Positions 2,580 through 59,301 of a stretch of DNA of 64,000 nt are shown piece by piece; position 1 is the stretch's first letter; every line of letters starts with the position of its first letter. Source of the DNA: Candidatus Saccharimonadota bacterium (GTDB lineage: Bacteria; Patescibacteriota; Saccharimonadia; Saccharimonadales; JAICHO01); contig JAICHO010000001.1 of NCBI GenBank assembly GCA_025924835.1, positions 2,553-66,552 of the forward strand. The letters run 5' to 3'. A model generated the notes under the pieces. The model did not search any database, was not told the DNA's origin, and worked only from the letters and a program-made list of their open reading frames with translations. Position numbers and translations under genes: made by a program.

Positions 2580-3023
2580 TTATTCCGTCCATACTATGAA
2601 AGGGTGCAACGGCTTAAGCAGCCCGACTATATCCCTCAGGGGTGGTTCATACTCTGGCTTGAAACCGGGGCTTGTACTCTGCACAACTAAATGTGCACCT
2701 GGGCCGTCATTTTCATACCAATATAAGCTGCCGACCGGAATGCTACTTTTTTCGCCCACTACCAGCCTGCGTTCATGACGTACACCTTCGGCCAAGTCTA
2801 CCGCTATAAGCCTGCCCAGCCCGTCTAATATCCTGTCATTAAAAGGTTCGCCGGTTATAAGCACGCACGGTTCAGTCGCCGACCGGACGGTCATCAGGAC
2901 ACGGTCGTCCGGACCAAGACCAGGCCCAGCCACGGGGATCATGTCAAAATCTACGTTATCATGCTGAAAAGTCTCCGGCTTGCCAGCGGTTTCGTCTTTA
3001 CCTAAAAATTCCTCATAAGACAT
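2580..3023 (-). CDS. hypothetical protein (147 aa)
   Basis: Intact ORF between the ABC-F gene and rpsO with no competing ORF; no motif recognised. Confidence 0.5.
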   Translation of the reverse strand: MSYEEFLGKDETAGKPETFQHDNVDFDMIPVAGPGLGPDDRVLMTVRSATEPCVLITGEPFNDRILDGLGRLIAVDLAEGVRHERRLVVGEKSSIPVGSLYWYENDGPGAHLVVQSTSPGFKPEYEPPLRDIVGLLKPLHPFIVWTE

Positions 3024-53934: not shown

Positions 53935-53992
53935 GTATCCGTATTCAGGAAGGAGCAGTCCGAGCAGACGATTCATTCGGCTGCCCGGCACG

Positions 53993-54026
53993 ATGAGGGA
54001 ACCTATCCCGGTTCCCTCATTTTTTT
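53993..54026 (+). terminator. perfect 11-bp stem-loop (AUGAGGGAACC/GGUUCCCUCAU) + T6 oriented for the plus strand, abutting the groEL stop codon
   Basis: Read directly; the T-tract overlaps the groEL stop. There is no plus-strand gene upstream. Confidence 0.35.
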
Positions 54027-55671
54027 ACATCCCCATCATCCCACCCATGTCAGGCGCCCCACCGGCAGGAGCCTTAGGCTCAGGCACTTCTACCACTAAA
54101 GCACCCATTGTCATGCTAGTGCCAGCAATGGATACGGCATTTTGCAGTGCCTCTTTAGTGACACGAGCCGGGTCAATTACACCCACACTTCTCAGGTCAA
54201 CTAGTGCCGTCGGACTATTGACGTTTACCCCAAAACCAGGCTTGCCTGCTTTTACTTGGGGCAACCATTCATCAGCGTTCAAGCCGGCATTGGTCAGCAA
54301 GATACGGAAAGGCTGTTCCAAGGCCTTTTTCAACAGTTGTCGGCCAGCCGTTACCGAGTCATCATCGTCATCCGTGGTAATTGTAGAGCTTAGGTTAATC
54401 AGCGTGACACCACCACCAGCTACAATGCCTTCGTCCAGAGCCGCCTTCACAGCTGCTACGGCATCATCAACCCGGAATTTCTTTTCTTCAATCTCGGTTT
54501 CGGTAGCACCGCCAACTTTAATAACGGCAACCTTACCGGATAGCGCCGCCCGGCGCTTTTCCAGGTTTTCTTTGTCGTACTCGCTGGTCGCGGACTTAAT
54601 CTGGGCATTAATCTGGTCAACGCGGGCTTGAATTTCAGCGGCGGAGCCAGCACCCTCGATAATGGTTGTTTCATCTTTAGTAACCAACACTTTACGAGCC
54701 GTCCCCACTACGTCCATATCGACGTTTTCAAAGGTCATGCCGCGGTCTTCAGTTATTACCTCCGCACCCGTCAAAACGGCAATGTCGTTCAGGACGTCTT
54801 TGCGACGGTCACCAAACGCCGGTGCCTTAATGGCGGTCGTGTTAAAGACGCCCTTCAGCTTGTTCAGGATTAGCGTCCCCAAGGCTTCGCCTTCAACATC
54901 TTCGGCAATCAGCACCAGATCTTTCTTGCCGGCTTGCGCCAGCTTTTCTAGCAGCGGCAAAAATTCCTGGATCGAAGTAATCTTTTTATCGGTGATAACT
55001 ACGGCCGGCTTTTCTATTACCGATTCCATGCGGGCAGCATCCGTCACCATGTACGGGCTGACAAACCCGCGATCAAACGTAAAGCCTTCAACTACCTCGC
55101 TTTCCAGCGCCAACCCTTGGCCTTCTTCTACTGTTACCACCCCGTCTTTGCCGACTTTTTCAATCACATCGGCAATCAGGTTGCCGATTTCGGCGTCGCC
55201 GGCACTAATGGTTGCTACCTCTGCTACGCGGGACTTCTTGCCTTTGATATCTTCGGCCAGACCACCCAGTTTGGCCTGTACTTCATGGGCGGCGGCCTCA
55301 AGGCCCTTGCGTAGCAGCATCGGGTTATGACCAGCGGCAATAAGCTTATTTGCCTCATTCAAAATATGATACGTCAGCACCGTTACGGTGGTTGTACCGT
55401 CACCAGCCACATCGTTCATTTTGCTAGCGGCCTGCTTAATTAACTCGGCACCAACTTTGTAGCCCAATGTCTCGTCGTCAACGTCAGCCAGTTCTACGCC
55501 CTTGGCTACGGTTACGCCGTCATGCGTAACCGTCGGGTTGCCGTAACTCTTGCTAATAATAACGTTGCGTCCCTTAGGCCCCATCGTCGTCTTCACCGCG
55601 TCATATAAAATCTGTGCCCCGCCCAGCACCCGGCGCCGGGCATCATCATCATAAAAAACTTTCTTTGCCAT
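54025..55671 (-). CDS. groEL: chaperonin GroEL
   Basis: 548 aa with AAVEEGIVAGGG-like regions and a C-terminal GGMMGM tail. Confidence 0.97.
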   Translation of the reverse strand: MAKKVFYDDDARRRVLGGAQILYDAVKTTMGPKGRNVIISKSYGNPTVTHDGVTVAKGVELADVDDETLGYKVGAELIKQAASKMNDVAGDGTTTVTVLTYHILNEANKLIAAGHNPMLLRKGLEAAAHEVQAKLGGLAEDIKGKKSRVAEVATISAGDAEIGNLIADVIEKVGKDGVVTVEEGQGLALESEVVEGFTFDRGFVSPYMVTDAARMESVIEKPAVVITDKKITSIQEFLPLLEKLAQAGKKDLVLIAEDVEGEALGTLILNKLKGVFNTTAIKAPAFGDRRKDVLNDIAVLTGAEVITEDRGMTFENVDMDVVGTARKVLVTKDETTIIEGAGSAAEIQARVDQINAQIKSATSEYDKENLEKRRAALSGKVAVIKVGGATETEIEEKKFRVDDAVAAVKAALDEGIVAGGGVTLINLSSTITTDDDDDSVTAGRQLLKKALEQPFRILLTNAGLNADEWLPQVKAGKPGFGVNVNSPTALVDLRSVGVIDPARVTKEALQNAVSIAGTSMTMGALVVEVPEPKAPAGGAPDMGGMMGM

Positions 55672-55814
55672 TATTTCTTCTCCTTACGTGTCAAGTTATC
55701 AATCTTTTCTTCCAGTCGTTTAACTGCTTCGTCAATTCTTGCTACCTTTGTTTCTACTCTCGTGAAGCCAATCCAGAAAATAACAAAGATTATAAAGCCG
55801 AGTATTCCATCCAT
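55671..55814 (-). CDS. small membrane protein (47 aa) encoded between groES and groEL
   Basis: MDGILGFIIFVIFWIGFTRVETKVARIDEAVKRLEEKIDNLTRKEKK. Its stop overlaps the groEL start as TAATG. Not in the ORF track because it is <60 aa. Confidence 0.45.
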   Translation of the reverse strand: MDGILGFIIFVIFWIGFTRVETKVARIDEAVKRLEEKIDNLTRKEKK

Positions 55815-55818
55815 AGTA

Positions 55819-56085
55819 TTACTTAACCGTCGCGAAGATATTTTCTGCCTTAATCAGAATGTATTCCGAGCCGCCGTATTTGACGACTTCGTTACTGTAG
55901 CCACCGTAAATAATCCGGTCGCCGACCTTAACATCGTCAACTTTCTTACCGACGGCCAGAACTTTAGCCACTTTGGGCTTTTCCTGAGCGTTACCCGGCA
56001 AGTACAAGCCGCTGGCGGTTTTGGTTTCGGCCTCTTCCTGCTGGGCGACTACATAGTCTGCCAATGGATTAATAGGTACAGACAT
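55819..56085 (-). CDS. groES: co-chaperonin GroES
   Basis: 88 aa with a typical GroES mobile loop and beta-barrel sequence. Confidence 0.95.
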   Translation of the reverse strand: MSVPINPLADYVVAQQEEAETKTASGLYLPGNAQEKPKVAKVLAVGKKVDDVKVGDRIIYGGYSNEVVKYGGSEYILIKAENIFATVK

Positions 56086-56117
56086 CTAACTCCTCCTTAA
56101 TCTGTTATTCAAGAGAG

Positions 56118-56158
56118 TTAGCACACAACAAAAGTGAGTGCTAACCGCTAGCACTCAC
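56118..56158. promoter_or_regulatory. CIRCE (HrcA operator) TTAGCACAC-N9-GAGTGCTAA plus an extra inverted half-site (ccgc-TAGCACTCAC)
   Basis: Read directly; one mismatch to the consensus TTAGCACTC-N9-GAGTGCTAA. Upstream of groES. Confidence 0.8.
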
Positions 56159-56186
56159 TATACCCGACTGCCAACACCCCTGTCAA
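56157..56186 (-). promoter_or_regulatory. sigma70 promoter TTGACA-N18-TATAGT driving groES-groEL, with the -10 abutting the CIRCE
   Basis: rc(56181-56186)=TTGACA and rc(56157-56162)=TATAGT. Confidence 0.5.
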
Positions 56187-56264: not shown

Positions 56265-57557
56265 CTACTTTTGCCCCAAGCTACGTTCGGCAACACGACC
56301 CAACCATAAGGCAGTATCAATATCAGCAGCCCGGGAAGGTAAGTTACTGCCCTTAATTTCGTTTATGACCTTTTCTTTCAGCTTCTTTTTGTATAAGCGG
56401 TTAGGCGTGTCGCCATGCGCCAGTCGTAGCTGTACGGTTTCCTCCTCCCCGGCAGCGTCATTATCACTATCAACTTCTAAAATAACATAAGGATCCAAGG
56501 ACTCAGGATCCCGTTTAGCCGGTGGAATTTTACGCTTATCCCAATCTTCAAATACGGCAAAATAGATATCATCTTGTAATTTGCATACCGCTTCGGCCAG
56601 CTGTTGGCGTTCAGAAATCGATAAATCATCAGCATAATTGGCAGCGGCCAATAAATAATGGTTCATAAACAGGTCCCGAAACACCTCGTGTCTCTGCTGC
56701 CCGTTTGGGCTCTTCCCTTTGCTAACGGTAAAAAGCCCACGATTTTCCTCAAGCGATTTGTATAAGCTCGTAATGTCGGCGCCGGCCTTATTTTTAAAGC
56801 TGGCTAGCCAGTTATTAGTATCAGGAACCGTTTCGGCGCTTTCAAAATCAATAAAATGCGTTGCCCTATCTATGGTCCGTACAATGTTCCGAGTTTTAGC
56901 ATCACCATGGAAGGTGCGCCCTTTAATGTGTAGCTCCGCGAGTGCATCCGCCATATCTTCTAGTCGATCTTCCATAAAGTAGCGCTCAGGCTCACTGCTC
57001 TGCATATACGCCCAGTTTTCGTTATCTAGCGTGGAAACTGTGTCTTCGTACAAAGTTACAAGATACTCAGCGCTATCCGTAATCAGGATTCCGGCCGGCA
57101 TAAAGACGGCAAAGCCCTTTTCTGATAGCGACTTTAGCTGCACATATTCGTGAAACGCTTTCTGATGGCCTTTTTCAAACCTTTTAACAGCTACCGGCTG
57201 AGTGGCCATCTCCTGGGTCGAGGGATCTAGATAGGATATATCACCAAAGAACACCTGGTGGGCAGAACGCCTTGCGTTAAAACCTCGTGCACGCTGAAGC
57301 TCAAACTCAAACCTGGGAGGAAGCTCTCCTTCATTATGCAAAACATCAAAAGCCTTTTGATCTAAATGTAGTCCTGGCTGTGTCAGTCGAGGTGTTCTGC
57401 TAGCTACAAAGTCTTGCGGGATTTCAGGCAGGACAAATACAGGGCTGCCCGGGTAACCCGATTGCTCAACTGCCGCTACAAATTCTTTGACGTGTAGCGG
57501 CAAAGGCGCTGGCGCCTCTACATCTGTGATTAATGGTAATAATTCAACTGTAGTCAT
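56265..57557 (-). CDS. atypical protein-kinase-like fold phosphotransferase (RIO/Kdo/APH-like), paralog A
   Basis: VAVKRFEK (beta3 Lys), HEY (alphaC Glu), catalytic loop HGDAKTRN and IDFE (DFG-like Asp); 430 aa. Confidence 0.6.
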   Translation of the reverse strand: MTTVELLPLITDVEAPAPLPLHVKEFVAAVEQSGYPGSPVFVLPEIPQDFVASRTPRLTQPGLHLDQKAFDVLHNEGELPPRFEFELQRARGFNARRSAHQVFFGDISYLDPSTQEMATQPVAVKRFEKGHQKAFHEYVQLKSLSEKGFAVFMPAGILITDSAEYLVTLYEDTVSTLDNENWAYMQSSEPERYFMEDRLEDMADALAELHIKGRTFHGDAKTRNIVRTIDRATHFIDFESAETVPDTNNWLASFKNKAGADITSLYKSLEENRGLFTVSKGKSPNGQQRHEVFRDLFMNHYLLAAANYADDLSISERQQLAEAVCKLQDDIYFAVFEDWDKRKIPPAKRDPESLDPYVILEVDSDNDAAGEEETVQLRLAHGDTPNRLYKKKLKEKVINEIKGSNLPSRAADIDTALWLGRVAERSLGQK

Positions 57558-57584: not shown

Positions 57585-58223
57585 TTAGCCTAACAAAGCT
57601 CTCCTTATCTTGGATACATTGCCGGGTGAAGCATTAGCTTCCCCTTCCTGAACTAGGCTAATAAGCGCGGCTTCTAGCGAACCCGGGGAAGCGGTTAAGG
57701 GGGGGATCAGTAAAACCTCGCCGCCGTTAGCCTTACTAAAAGCAAGCTTGAACCAGGTCAAGCTTTCGGGCACCGCGCCAGTTTCCCGAGCAAGACGAGC
57801 GAGTAATTCACGTGTTTTTAGTAAAACCTCTGGCAACTCCATACTTATGGGGCTTGCGGACTGTGATGGCTGCTCGGACAATAAGATCCTAGATAAAGGC
57901 CGGGCACTGCTTGGCACAGCGTATTGCGTAACTTCTTCATCTGCCCATAATCGCCTCATGTGCGGCACACCAGCGGACTCCATTAGGCTGTACATTGCAT
58001 CATCCGCTCCCGTTCGTTCACAAAACAAGCTTCGTTGGCGGCCCTGTACAACATCCACAATTTCTATGCAGCCATTTGATGGACATAAATTAAAAGTCGG
58101 ATCAGTTTCTATAAATCCACTTGCCATTAAGCGTTCGCGAATAGGCCCCAAGGCAAAATCAACGGGCTCGCCAGCTGGGGCACTATTATGTTTTGGGGAT
58201 TGATGTGTTGGTATCTGAGACAT
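57585..58223 (-). CDS. hypothetical protein (212 aa)
   Basis: ORF between the two kinase paralogs; no motif recognised. Confidence 0.5.
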   Translation of the reverse strand: MSQIPTHQSPKHNSAPAGEPVDFALGPIRERLMASGFIETDPTFNLCPSNGCIEIVDVVQGRQRSLFCERTGADDAMYSLMESAGVPHMRRLWADEEVTQYAVPSSARPLSRILLSEQPSQSASPISMELPEVLLKTRELLARLARETGAVPESLTWFKLAFSKANGGEVLLIPPLTASPGSLEAALISLVQEGEANASPGNVSKIRRALLG

Positions 58224-58281: not shown

Positions 58282-59301
58282 CTAGCTGCCTCCAAAGTTT
58301 TCAAGGTCAAAGTTTATGCCTTCCTGAAGAATGTCAAAATCTATCAGGTGTTTCCATCCCACATCGGTCGCAGGGTGCCTCAAAACCATGCGGTAAACTC
58401 CGAGTAAGTGCTCATCATAAAAAGCCTGCTTTTCCGCTAACGTATTCTCGGCTAATACCCCACGCTCGGACAATGAGCCGAGTAGCAGCAATAAGTCCCT
58501 AAGAACTACCTCGTGTAGCCGTACGCTATCTTCCTCGCTCAACCCGCCGTCAGGTTGCACCGTAAAGGTATTGGCGGAAAAGGTCTCCAGATCTACGAGG
58601 CGCAGGCCTGACTGGTCCCATGCCATGTTTCTAAGGCGGGCATCGCCATGTGATGGAACCACAACATCATCTTCTTGAGGATTACGGACGGGGGTAGAAT
58701 GCAACAAGCCTAGCGTTAAAGCGCACTTTTCTATGATTGCTGTCAGCATATCAGGATCGTCTTGCGTATCCAGTAAGGTGCCCCATTCAAAATTGTCAAA
58801 ACTACGCACCTGCGGTTCAAAGTCCGTAATGAGTGCCGGGTTTTTGCCGACCATTGCTAGACCGACTGGATTAAAGGTGCGAATTAAATCGGCCTGCCTC
58901 ACCAGGCGAGTTGCTGCGTATTCATGCATAGCCGCTTCCAGGTCACCCTCAAAAATTTTAACAGCGACTGGCCGGCTGATGTCTCCGTCGGGACCTTCAA
59001 AATTCATATGCCCAAAGCGCACGTCATGAGCCGAGGCTTCTCTTCCCTCGCGCCAGCTTGGTTCTTCGGTAAATGCAAAACGACTAGGCCCGGCGTGCTC
59101 TGCTCTAGACCCCAGTTCGACGGCTTTGTCGGCTGCAAGCACTAGGCCATTGTAGGCAGCCCGGCCAAGGCTCTCTGCCAAACCGCCAATAACCACCTTG
59201 CCATTTACCACTTCAGCCTGGTTTAAGGGCAAAGCAGCGGGCAAAATATCGCCCTCGAAGTGAAAGGCCGGGAATGATTCGTGTAGGTGAGTTGTTGCCA
59301 T
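58282..59301 (-). CDS. atypical protein-kinase-like fold phosphotransferase, paralog B
   Basis: VAVKIFEG...HEY...SHGDARLRN...VDLE, colinear with paralog A; 339 aa. Confidence 0.6.
   Translation of the reverse strand: MATTHLHESFPAFHFEGDILPAALPLNQAEVVNGKVVIGGLAESLGRAAYNGLVLAADKAVELGSRAEHAGPSRFAFTEEPSWREGREASAHDVRFGHMNFEGPDGDISRPVAVKIFEGDLEAAMHEYAATRLVRQADLIRTFNPVGLAMVGKNPALITDFEPQVRSFDNFEWGTLLDTQDDPDMLTAIIEKCALTLGLLHSTPVRNPQEDDVVVPSHGDARLRNMAWDQSGLRLVDLETFSANTFTVQPDGGLSEEDSVRLHEVVLRDLLLLLGSLSERGVLAENTLAEKQAFYDEHLLGVYRMVLRHPATDVGWKHLIDFDILQEGINFDLENFGGS

Follow-up and report, generated by a model that had tools for sequence, protein, structure and literature searches.

The chaperonin operon groES–groEL (groESL) is highly conserved and well studied and, to our knowledge, its two-gene layout is treated as given. 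Here, we analyse a 64,000-nt stretch of DNA from a Candidatus Saccharimonadota bacterium (GenBank assembly GCA_025924835.1, contig JAICHO010000001.1, positions 2,553–66,552), which in its whole length is referred to below as the window, and in which groES (Cpn10), a 47-codon open reading frame (ORF) and groEL (Cpn60) are packed in that order, all on the minus strand. We denote the middle ORF the mini-gene and its product X. The mini-gene is almost certainly a real gene, as judged from sequence comparison, and we find purifying selection on both its reading frame and its amino acid pattern in lineages that have reached saturation at synonymous sites.

A third reading frame between groES and groEL

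At the window locus, groES and groEL are separated by a spacer of 147 nt. The mini-gene opens with an ATG 4 nt (TACT) past the groES TAA and closes with a TAA (55673–55671) that has one base in common with the groEL ATG (55671–55669), giving the junction TAATG, and its product is the 47-amino-acid (aa) protein MDGILGFIIFVIFWIGFTRVETKVARIDEAVKRLEEKIDNLTRKEKK. The coordinates and junctions listed in an earlier note on this DNA agree with the sequence in every detail. An ORF filling the spacer arose in 63 of 20,000 mononucleotide shuffles of the window spacer, and across the family loci described below its chance occurrence amounts to 0.15–0.8% of shuffles per locus. Neither promoter-like nor terminator-like sites occur within the mini-gene on either strand, no promoter-like site was found in or adjoining 55671–55814 on either strand (the antisense direction included), and the rest of the window holds no paralogue of the mini-gene.

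To place this spacer among its relatives, we scanned with the window GroEL, taking one genome per species, and obtained 80 loci at 79–89% identity, nearly all labelled Saccharibacteria or Saccharimonadales; both groES and groEL could be placed in 78, which we refer to as the 78 related species. Their median spacer is 14 nt, and 61 have one of at most 30 nt, which holds little besides a GGAG ribosome-binding site. The two genes are thus normally adjacent in this lineage, as the earlier note had assumed. Spacers of at least 55 nt occur in 16 of the 78 species: 13 are non-coding (55–141 nt), several of them with hairpins, two (L054 and L059, 142 nt each) are filled by a 46-codon ORF with 30–33% identity to the window peptide, and one (L044) holds an unrelated hydrophobic ORF of 53 codons, taken up below. 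Relatives without the mini-gene carry a GGAG at an equal distance from the groEL ATG.

A family of small proteins at the groES–groEL junction

The family was assembled by three routes. A HMMER profile built from four sequences and run against 1.84 billion representative proteins gave 15 proteins of 34–48 aa with the same layout, together with three longer proteins in which the match ran over short repeated segments. Seventeen sequences used as queries in a word-index search gave 24 proteins, each present on 1–11 contigs and none meaningfully named. Finally, a degenerate DNA pattern, hand-built to combine the conserved codons with the purine-rich end and ATGGC, was scanned over metagenomes and matched 10 contigs, eight of which hold further members; the other two, L096 and L099, proved unrelated on inspection. 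An earlier metagenome scan with a generic, automatically made peptide pattern had confirmed no member. The family totals 31 distinct homologues of 41–48 aa, the closest to the window protein being P0004 (66% identical). One member, P0009 (46 aa; L081–L083 and L095), bears the automatic JGI label ‘uncharacterized membrane protein YqiK’; we set this label aside, as the protein has no Pfam hit at E ≤ 0.05.

The genomic context could be read for 17 distinct members, and every one of them has the Cpn10 gene on one side and the Cpn60 gene on the other. The start of the mini-gene falls between −1 and +4 nt from the groES stop, with a TAATG or TGATG overlap in four lineages. At the other end, nine lineages have a stop that overlaps the groEL ATG; in the others the stop precedes it by 0–3 nt. 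Most members are without a clear ribosome-binding site of their own. In L100 (1619–1756) and L104 (2544–2681, both in reverse-complement coordinates), the member apparently starts with GTG, one base past the groES stop.

Selection on the reading frame

The earlier note had proposed two checks in relatives, namely for an ORF of similar length with a hydrophobic N terminus and for selection of the dN/dS type (the ratio of non-synonymous to synonymous substitution rates). Relatives with this type of long spacer do keep such an ORF, and the selection is that of a coding sequence. Among 11 diverse members, the proportion of non-synonymous differences (pN) is 0.24–0.49 and that of synonymous differences (pS) is 0.65–1.0. 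In the closest non-identical pair, L059 and L100, pN is 0.16 and pS 0.71 (nominal dN/dS roughly 0.08); in the pair L093 and L102 the values are 0.20 and 0.80; and L091 differs from L092 by one synonymous change and no non-synonymous change. Mean pairwise nucleotide identity at codon positions 1, 2 and 3 is 0.51, 0.69 and 0.33, respectively, a clear three-base periodicity.

These data bear directly on whether the spacer could instead act as a folded, non-coding RNA (for example an RNA thermometer, a partial terminator or a site of processing), the ORF being incidental. The 13 non-coding spacers of related species, some with hairpins, indicate that the position tolerates RNA elements. In the mini-gene, however, RNAalifold found no conserved base pairs among the 11 diverse members, the window spacer folds no better than its shuffles (z = −0.58), the spacer has no match in Rfam and the variation follows codons, so that this explanation is effectively refuted.

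Anatomy of the mini-protein

The family follows the pattern M-[ED]-x, about 15 hydrophobic residues, [WG]-[AF]-x-R-[VI]-E-x-N-x-A-K-x-x-E-x-L-x-R-I-E-K-x-L, a variable stretch and K-E-K-K. The most conserved columns are R19 (30 of 31 sequences), E35 (29 of 31), L38 (29 of 30), I34 (27 of 31), E21 (26 of 31) and R33 (25 of 31). Residues 3–18 are uniformly hydrophobic, with a mean Kyte–Doolittle value of 3–4. In the charged tail that follows, hydrophobic columns 20, 24, 27, 31, 34 and 38 (spacing 4-3-4-3-4) are conserved over the 31 sequences, and the a/d heptad spacing of a coiled coil is thus kept over at least three heptads, about three turns. AlphaFold2, given a 24-sequence alignment, predicts a single helix spanning residues 2–46 with a mean predicted local distance difference test score of 84.8. 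Both the prediction and the alignment columns agree with the transmembrane helix and charged, coiled-coil-like tail that had been proposed from the window sequence, and we consider that the mini-protein is probably a membrane-anchored helix. The net charge is 0 to +5 in the tail and −1 or 0 in the N-terminal segment; by the positive-inside rule, this difference would place the N terminus outside and the tail in the cytoplasm. Trypsin reduces the charged tail to very short pieces, leaving the hydrophobic MDGILGFIIFVIFWIGFTR as the remaining useful tryptic peptide.

Two subtypes can be told apart: ‘...VGF[TM]R...’ in the window, P0004, P0005 and L086, and ‘...IWA[FS]R...’ in most others. A purine-rich C-terminal block is kept in every member. 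The KEKK encoded there should not be taken for a protein motif: its codons, AAGGAGAAGAAA, largely constitute the groEL Shine–Dalgarno sequence at the normal distance from the start.

Translation signals joined to both neighbours

The mini-gene is thus wired into the translation signals of both groES and groEL, and its upstream junction of −1 to +4 nt fits termination and re-initiation after groES. It is also an example of a coding C terminus that doubles as the ribosome-binding site of the next gene. In L081, L084, L086 and L098, as well as in L043, L060 and L078, groES ends in ...VKG and not in ...VK; the additional codon, for glycine, gives rise to AAGGGG or AAAGG, which resembles a ribosome-binding site, before the next gene, which is the mini-gene in the first four loci and groEL in the last three, which have no mini-gene.

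Junctions this tight, together with last codons that serve as the groEL Shine–Dalgarno sequence and the missing ribosome-binding sites of most members, would also be expected if only the act of translating the ORF mattered, the ORF serving for coupling or spacing, so as to hold ribosomes on the mRNA and fix the GroES:GroEL ratio, and the peptide being a by-product. We regard this as quite unlikely: residues R19, E21, L31, R33, I34, E35 and L38 and the hydrophobic and heptad pattern are conserved, pN falls well short of pS, conservation peaks at second codon positions, and relatives couple the two genes with a spacer of 10–14 nt. Still less probable is a recoding module, in which frameshifting or readthrough would fuse X to GroEL, giving a membrane-anchored isoform, or would extend GroES. 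A-rich runs do precede the stop, and A-AAA-AAA-TAA in L081 is formally an in-frame −1 slippery heptamer. However, fusion would need a −1 shift in the TAATG types, readthrough in L059, L086, L097 and L100 and a +1 shift in L054, and the frame relation to groES varies as well, from −1 to +4 nt, so that no single recoding mechanism is conserved; the richness in A and G before the stop is explained by the Shine–Dalgarno sequence.

Distribution and inheritance

Carriers of the mini-gene are two of the 78 related species plus the window. The nearest relatives of the window, L008, L022 and L002, have spacers of 8–14 nt, and the two subtypes of the mini-protein fall in different large groups of the GroEL tree. 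X evolves much faster than GroEL, and its divergence is not significantly correlated with that of GroEL (Mantel r = 0.06, p = 0.39 for 10 lineages; r = 0.17, p = 0.11 for 14 lineages). Nevertheless, where GroEL is most alike (three pairs, 90–93%), the mini-proteins are also 60–70% identical, which fits long residence in the operon. The G+C content at third codon positions (GC3) of the mini-gene tracks that of the host in about half of the genomes and is lower in the others, the window among them (0.375 in the mini-gene versus 0.55 in groEL). No flanking repeats marking an insertion were seen at the locus.

The earlier note had described the gene as inserted between groES and groEL. Its position is as described; insertion is one possible origin, and ancestral presence with many losses fits at least equally well. 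We read the history as old residence with many clean losses, although the evidence on inheritance is mixed and the gene may instead have spread by recombination between the conserved groES and groEL sequences on either side. Under either mode, the mini-gene is dispensable.

Spread of that kind would also suit a selfish or toxin-like hydrophobic gene, akin to a type I toxin or a holin, that moves by homologous recombination through the groES and groEL flanks. The patchy distribution, the non-significant Mantel correlation over 14 lineages and a GC3 below that of groEL in several genomes, including the window, point in this direction. Yet a toxin would hardly be expected on the sense strand within an operon that is essential and very highly expressed, where this gene lies; neither an antisense promoter-like site nor flanking repeats were found at the locus; the protein has no phage-family or defence-like matches and no significant match in PHROGs; and both the GC3 that follows the host in half of the genomes and the close mini-proteins of the closest GroEL pairs argue against it. 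We consider this explanation very unlikely.

Proposed expression and function

On balance, we interpret the mini-gene as the third cistron of a groES-X-groEL heat-shock operon, which would encode a new family of single-pass membrane microproteins with an accessory role at the interface of chaperonin and membrane. A single mRNA would be made from the sigma-70-like promoter upstream of groES and repressed through HrcA and its operator, the controlling inverted repeat of chaperone expression (CIRCE). Ribosomes ending groES would re-initiate on X, and groEL would be started either through the Shine–Dalgarno sequence embedded in the mini-gene or by coupling at TAATG. X would thereby be made together with GroES and GroEL and be heat-induced with them. 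Its 16-residue N-terminal segment would insert in the cytoplasmic membrane with the N terminus outside, and the cytoplasmic tail of roughly 28 residues would form a short coiled coil, associating with itself or binding a partner. As a dispensable accessory, X may tether GroEL and GroES, or membrane-bound or secreted clients, to the membrane under proteotoxic stress. Part of this had been put forward in the earlier note as translational coupling and CIRCE control: the tight start and stop junctions are indeed conserved, and the operator is present here and, at up to three mismatches, precedes groES in all 89 related loci, while coupling proper and heat induction, like translation and membrane insertion of X, are predictions from the sequence.

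That the function of X is tied to the chaperonin is a tentative suggestion by analogy, since a small membrane protein whose gene lies among those for the subunits of a complex is usually a binding partner of that complex; it is favoured by the exclusive location between groES and groEL and by translation signals fused with both genes. More specifically, X might be a dedicated third component of the chaperonin system, a membrane anchor or adaptor to whose coiled coil, on the cytoplasmic side, GroEL/GroES or their clients would dock, which we put forward as a doubtful and speculative possibility. If it holds, folding capacity would be gathered at the membrane of ultra-small, envelope-dependent epibiotic cells during heat stress, and no small membrane subunit of a group I chaperonin would have been described before X.

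Several observations weigh against this interpretation at one or another of its levels. The mini-gene is absent from 76 of the 78 related species (spacer of 3–34 nt or non-coding), which makes it dispensable; it is often lost; and in a neighbour-joining GroEL tree, which is rough, its carriers are scattered, each beside short-spacer lineages. Because dS is saturated, dN/dS is bounded and not measured. A hydrophobic segment of 16 residues is short for a membrane span, and the conservation of the C terminus is due to the groEL ribosome-binding site and not to protein function. GroEL and GroES are soluble proteins. No GroEL or GroES column is associated with the presence of the mini-gene beyond what multiple testing allows (best p = 0.003–0.004 over hundreds of columns), and the C-terminal tails of GroEL are alike in carriers and non-carriers; this want of co-adaptation argues against a tightly co-evolved physical partnership.

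The main alternative is a protein that is real and independent of the chaperonin, for which groESL would merely be a strong, heat-inducible expression platform. Such a protein could stabilize the membrane or modulate a membrane protein, for instance an FtsH-like protease, a transporter or a sensor. GroEL and GroES residues that are uncorrelated with the mini-gene, and its repeated loss with no visible change in the flanking genes, favour this view, and the small membrane proteins that have been studied (AcrZ, MgrB, MgtS, KdpF and CydX) mostly bind larger membrane proteins, which the soluble GroEL and GroES are not. Against it stand the 17 of 17 contexts within groESL despite deep divergence, with no copy found elsewhere, including the rest of the window, and the fusion of the end of the mini-gene with the groEL ribosome-binding site. 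We hold an independent role to be possible but no firmer than a chaperonin-linked one, the two being about equally likely.

Either outcome would be informative. GroEL is often found at membranes, and the reason for this is an old question; if X works with the chaperonin, it would bear on how membrane and secreted proteins are served by a folding machine that is itself soluble. If X works alone, it would still represent a new family of membrane microproteins made under heat shock, in a group (Saccharibacteria) from which we know of almost no experimentally characterized small proteins.

Relation to known operons and proteins

The locus shares with the canonical HrcA/CIRCE-controlled groES–groEL operon its gene order, a sigma-70-like promoter followed by CIRCE, and a groEL Shine–Dalgarno sequence at the normal distance. 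It differs in the predicted translated third cistron in a spacer of 147 nt, as compared with the median of 14 nt, and is therefore not a two-gene operon. Searches of the full-text literature turned up neither a gene lodged between groES and groEL nor such a protein in Saccharibacteria. With bacterial small membrane proteins (50 aa or fewer), X shares a conserved short ORF under purifying selection (31 homologues). What is new is the protein family and the three-gene variant of a well-known operon; the operon-embedded small membrane protein is a kind already known.

The closest parallels of that kind are KdpF (kdpFABC), CydX (cydABX) and AcrZ (AcrB), which are accessory subunits. X resembles them in its length (under 50 aa), in its dispensability, common among them, and in being missed by annotation, and is predicted to resemble them in having one membrane helix and in being co-transcribed and tightly coupled with much larger partners. 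Their partners, however, are membrane complexes, whereas X neighbours the soluble GroEL and GroES; the sequences show no similarity, and X differs in its charged coiled-coil tail of roughly 28 residues.

The mini-protein has no match above threshold, or none that is significant, in Pfam, NCBIfam, PHROGs and the sequences of the PDB. Sub-threshold matches recur to DUF948, DUF6019, YebO, FtsL, the BAX BH3 helix and SNAP-25, all of which combine a membrane helix with a coiled coil or are amphipathic. DUF948 (PF06103), the family of Staphylococcus aureus FacZ, has been mapped mainly across Firmicutes (PMC10914604). It resembles the predicted architecture of X, with a membrane helix at the N terminus and then, in the cytoplasm, a region that is helical or a coiled coil, and five of the 24 members give weak hits at profile positions 7–43 (best 19.8 bits, with a gathering threshold of 37.2); the window protein itself gives none at E ≤ 1, and the domain model, at 89 positions, is about twice the length of the mini-proteins. 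We know of no DUF948 gene that resides in groESL. DUF6019 (PF19483) and the YebO-like family (PF13974) are likewise short, with an N-terminal hydrophobic helix and a charged helical tail. P0028 reaches 22.7 bits against the DUF6019 cut-off of 23.6, with only two of the 24 members at E ≤ 0.1, and three members match YebO at E of about 0.01, below its cut-off of 27; the window protein matches neither. As both families are of unknown function, membership would explain nothing. The observation in the earlier note and the greater part of its interpretation stand, and our verdict is that the finding is real, unannotated and unusual, yet rare and dispensable.

Other elements in the groES–groEL spacer

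Long spacers in related species hold elements of other kinds. In L044 (Saccharibacteria UBA5148, contig DHXU01000009.1), an ORF of 53 aa, MIMLFATAGLGEMSDMESSILGAVAGFMVISGLAVLAVVVVREMNKFMKQRRK, at 2840–3003 fills a spacer of 158 nt. It resembles the mini-gene in its slot and its tight junctions (an ATGA overlap with the groES stop, and a TAG directly followed by the groEL ATG), and its hydrophobic product resembles X in having one hydrophobic helix and a basic C terminus that overwrites the groEL Shine–Dalgarno sequence. In contrast to X, it has no coiled-coil tail and no detectable homology to the family (E = 1.7). A search of 5.8 billion proteins returned no relatives, and we count it neither as a member nor as the founder of a separate family. 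It may have arisen by chance, be a gene of recent origin or represent another membrane peptide that came to occupy this slot independently.

We also considered whether the 13 non-coding spacers might be decayed mini-genes and rejected this: the best three-frame translation reached E = 1.1 against the family hidden Markov model, although full decay is possible at such divergence. The spacers of L028 (118 nt) and L041 (126 nt), which are not sister lineages, have a common non-coding motif, GAGAAAAACCGC-AG-TTTGTCTCATTACCCGAAGGGA, with a hairpin (TGAGA...TCTCA) just upstream of the groEL start (near L041:3001 and L028:1801), and those of L036 and L039 have GC-rich hairpins upstream of groEL. No match in Rfam was found here. 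Within this clade, insertions of various kinds seem to recur at the groES–groEL junction, which would make it a hotspot.

Control signals and neighbouring genes

The features of the operon are collected in Table 1. The listed promoter is the only strong promoter-like site on the minus strand upstream of groES. CIRCE was scored against the consensus TTAGCACTC-N9-GAGTGCTAA, for which 0.02 matches are expected by chance, and the better of the two repeats sits roughly 32 nt upstream of the groES ATG. The inner halves of both repeats together form a perfect 12-bp hairpin (56159–56133), which a scan had classed as terminator-like. The hairpin that follows groEL may act as a minus-strand terminator, a reading kept tentative because its T-run lies on the plus strand only.

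Table 1 Features of the groES-X-groEL locus in window coordinates
Feature	Position	Strand	Description
Hairpin right after the groEL stop	53992–54021	.	12 bp, GC-rich; probable operon end
groEL (Cpn60)	54025–55671	−	548 aa; PF00118 Cpn60_TCP1, E = 2.2e-67
Mini-protein gene	55671–55814	−	47 aa; residues 3–18 hydrophobic, probable membrane segment; residues 19–47 charged heptad tail
groEL Shine–Dalgarno and spacing to start	55674–55685	−	AAGGAGAAGAAA, mini-protein codons K44-E45-K46-K47
groES (Cpn10)	55819–56085	−	88 aa; Pfam PF00166, E = 3.9e-22
groES Shine–Dalgarno	56091–56098	−	AAGGAGGA, read from sequence
CIRCE operator (predicted HrcA repressor binding site)	56118–56144	.	TTAGCACTC-N9-GtGTGCTAA; 1 mismatch
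Second, degenerate CIRCE-like repeat	56148–56174	.	3 mismatches; between the −35 and −10 hexamers, overlaps −10
Sigma-70-like promoter	56157–56186	−	TTGACA, 18-nt spacer, TATAGT; 11 of 12 matches, consensus match only

Upstream of groES, the minus strand carries three further ORFs, at 56265–57557, 57585–58223 and 58282–59301, which encode 430, 212 and 339 aa and have no significant Pfam match. The 430- and 339-aa products show faint kinase-like matches (APH and Pkinase; E = 0.003–0.03), and they may be divergent paralogues with a kinase fold.

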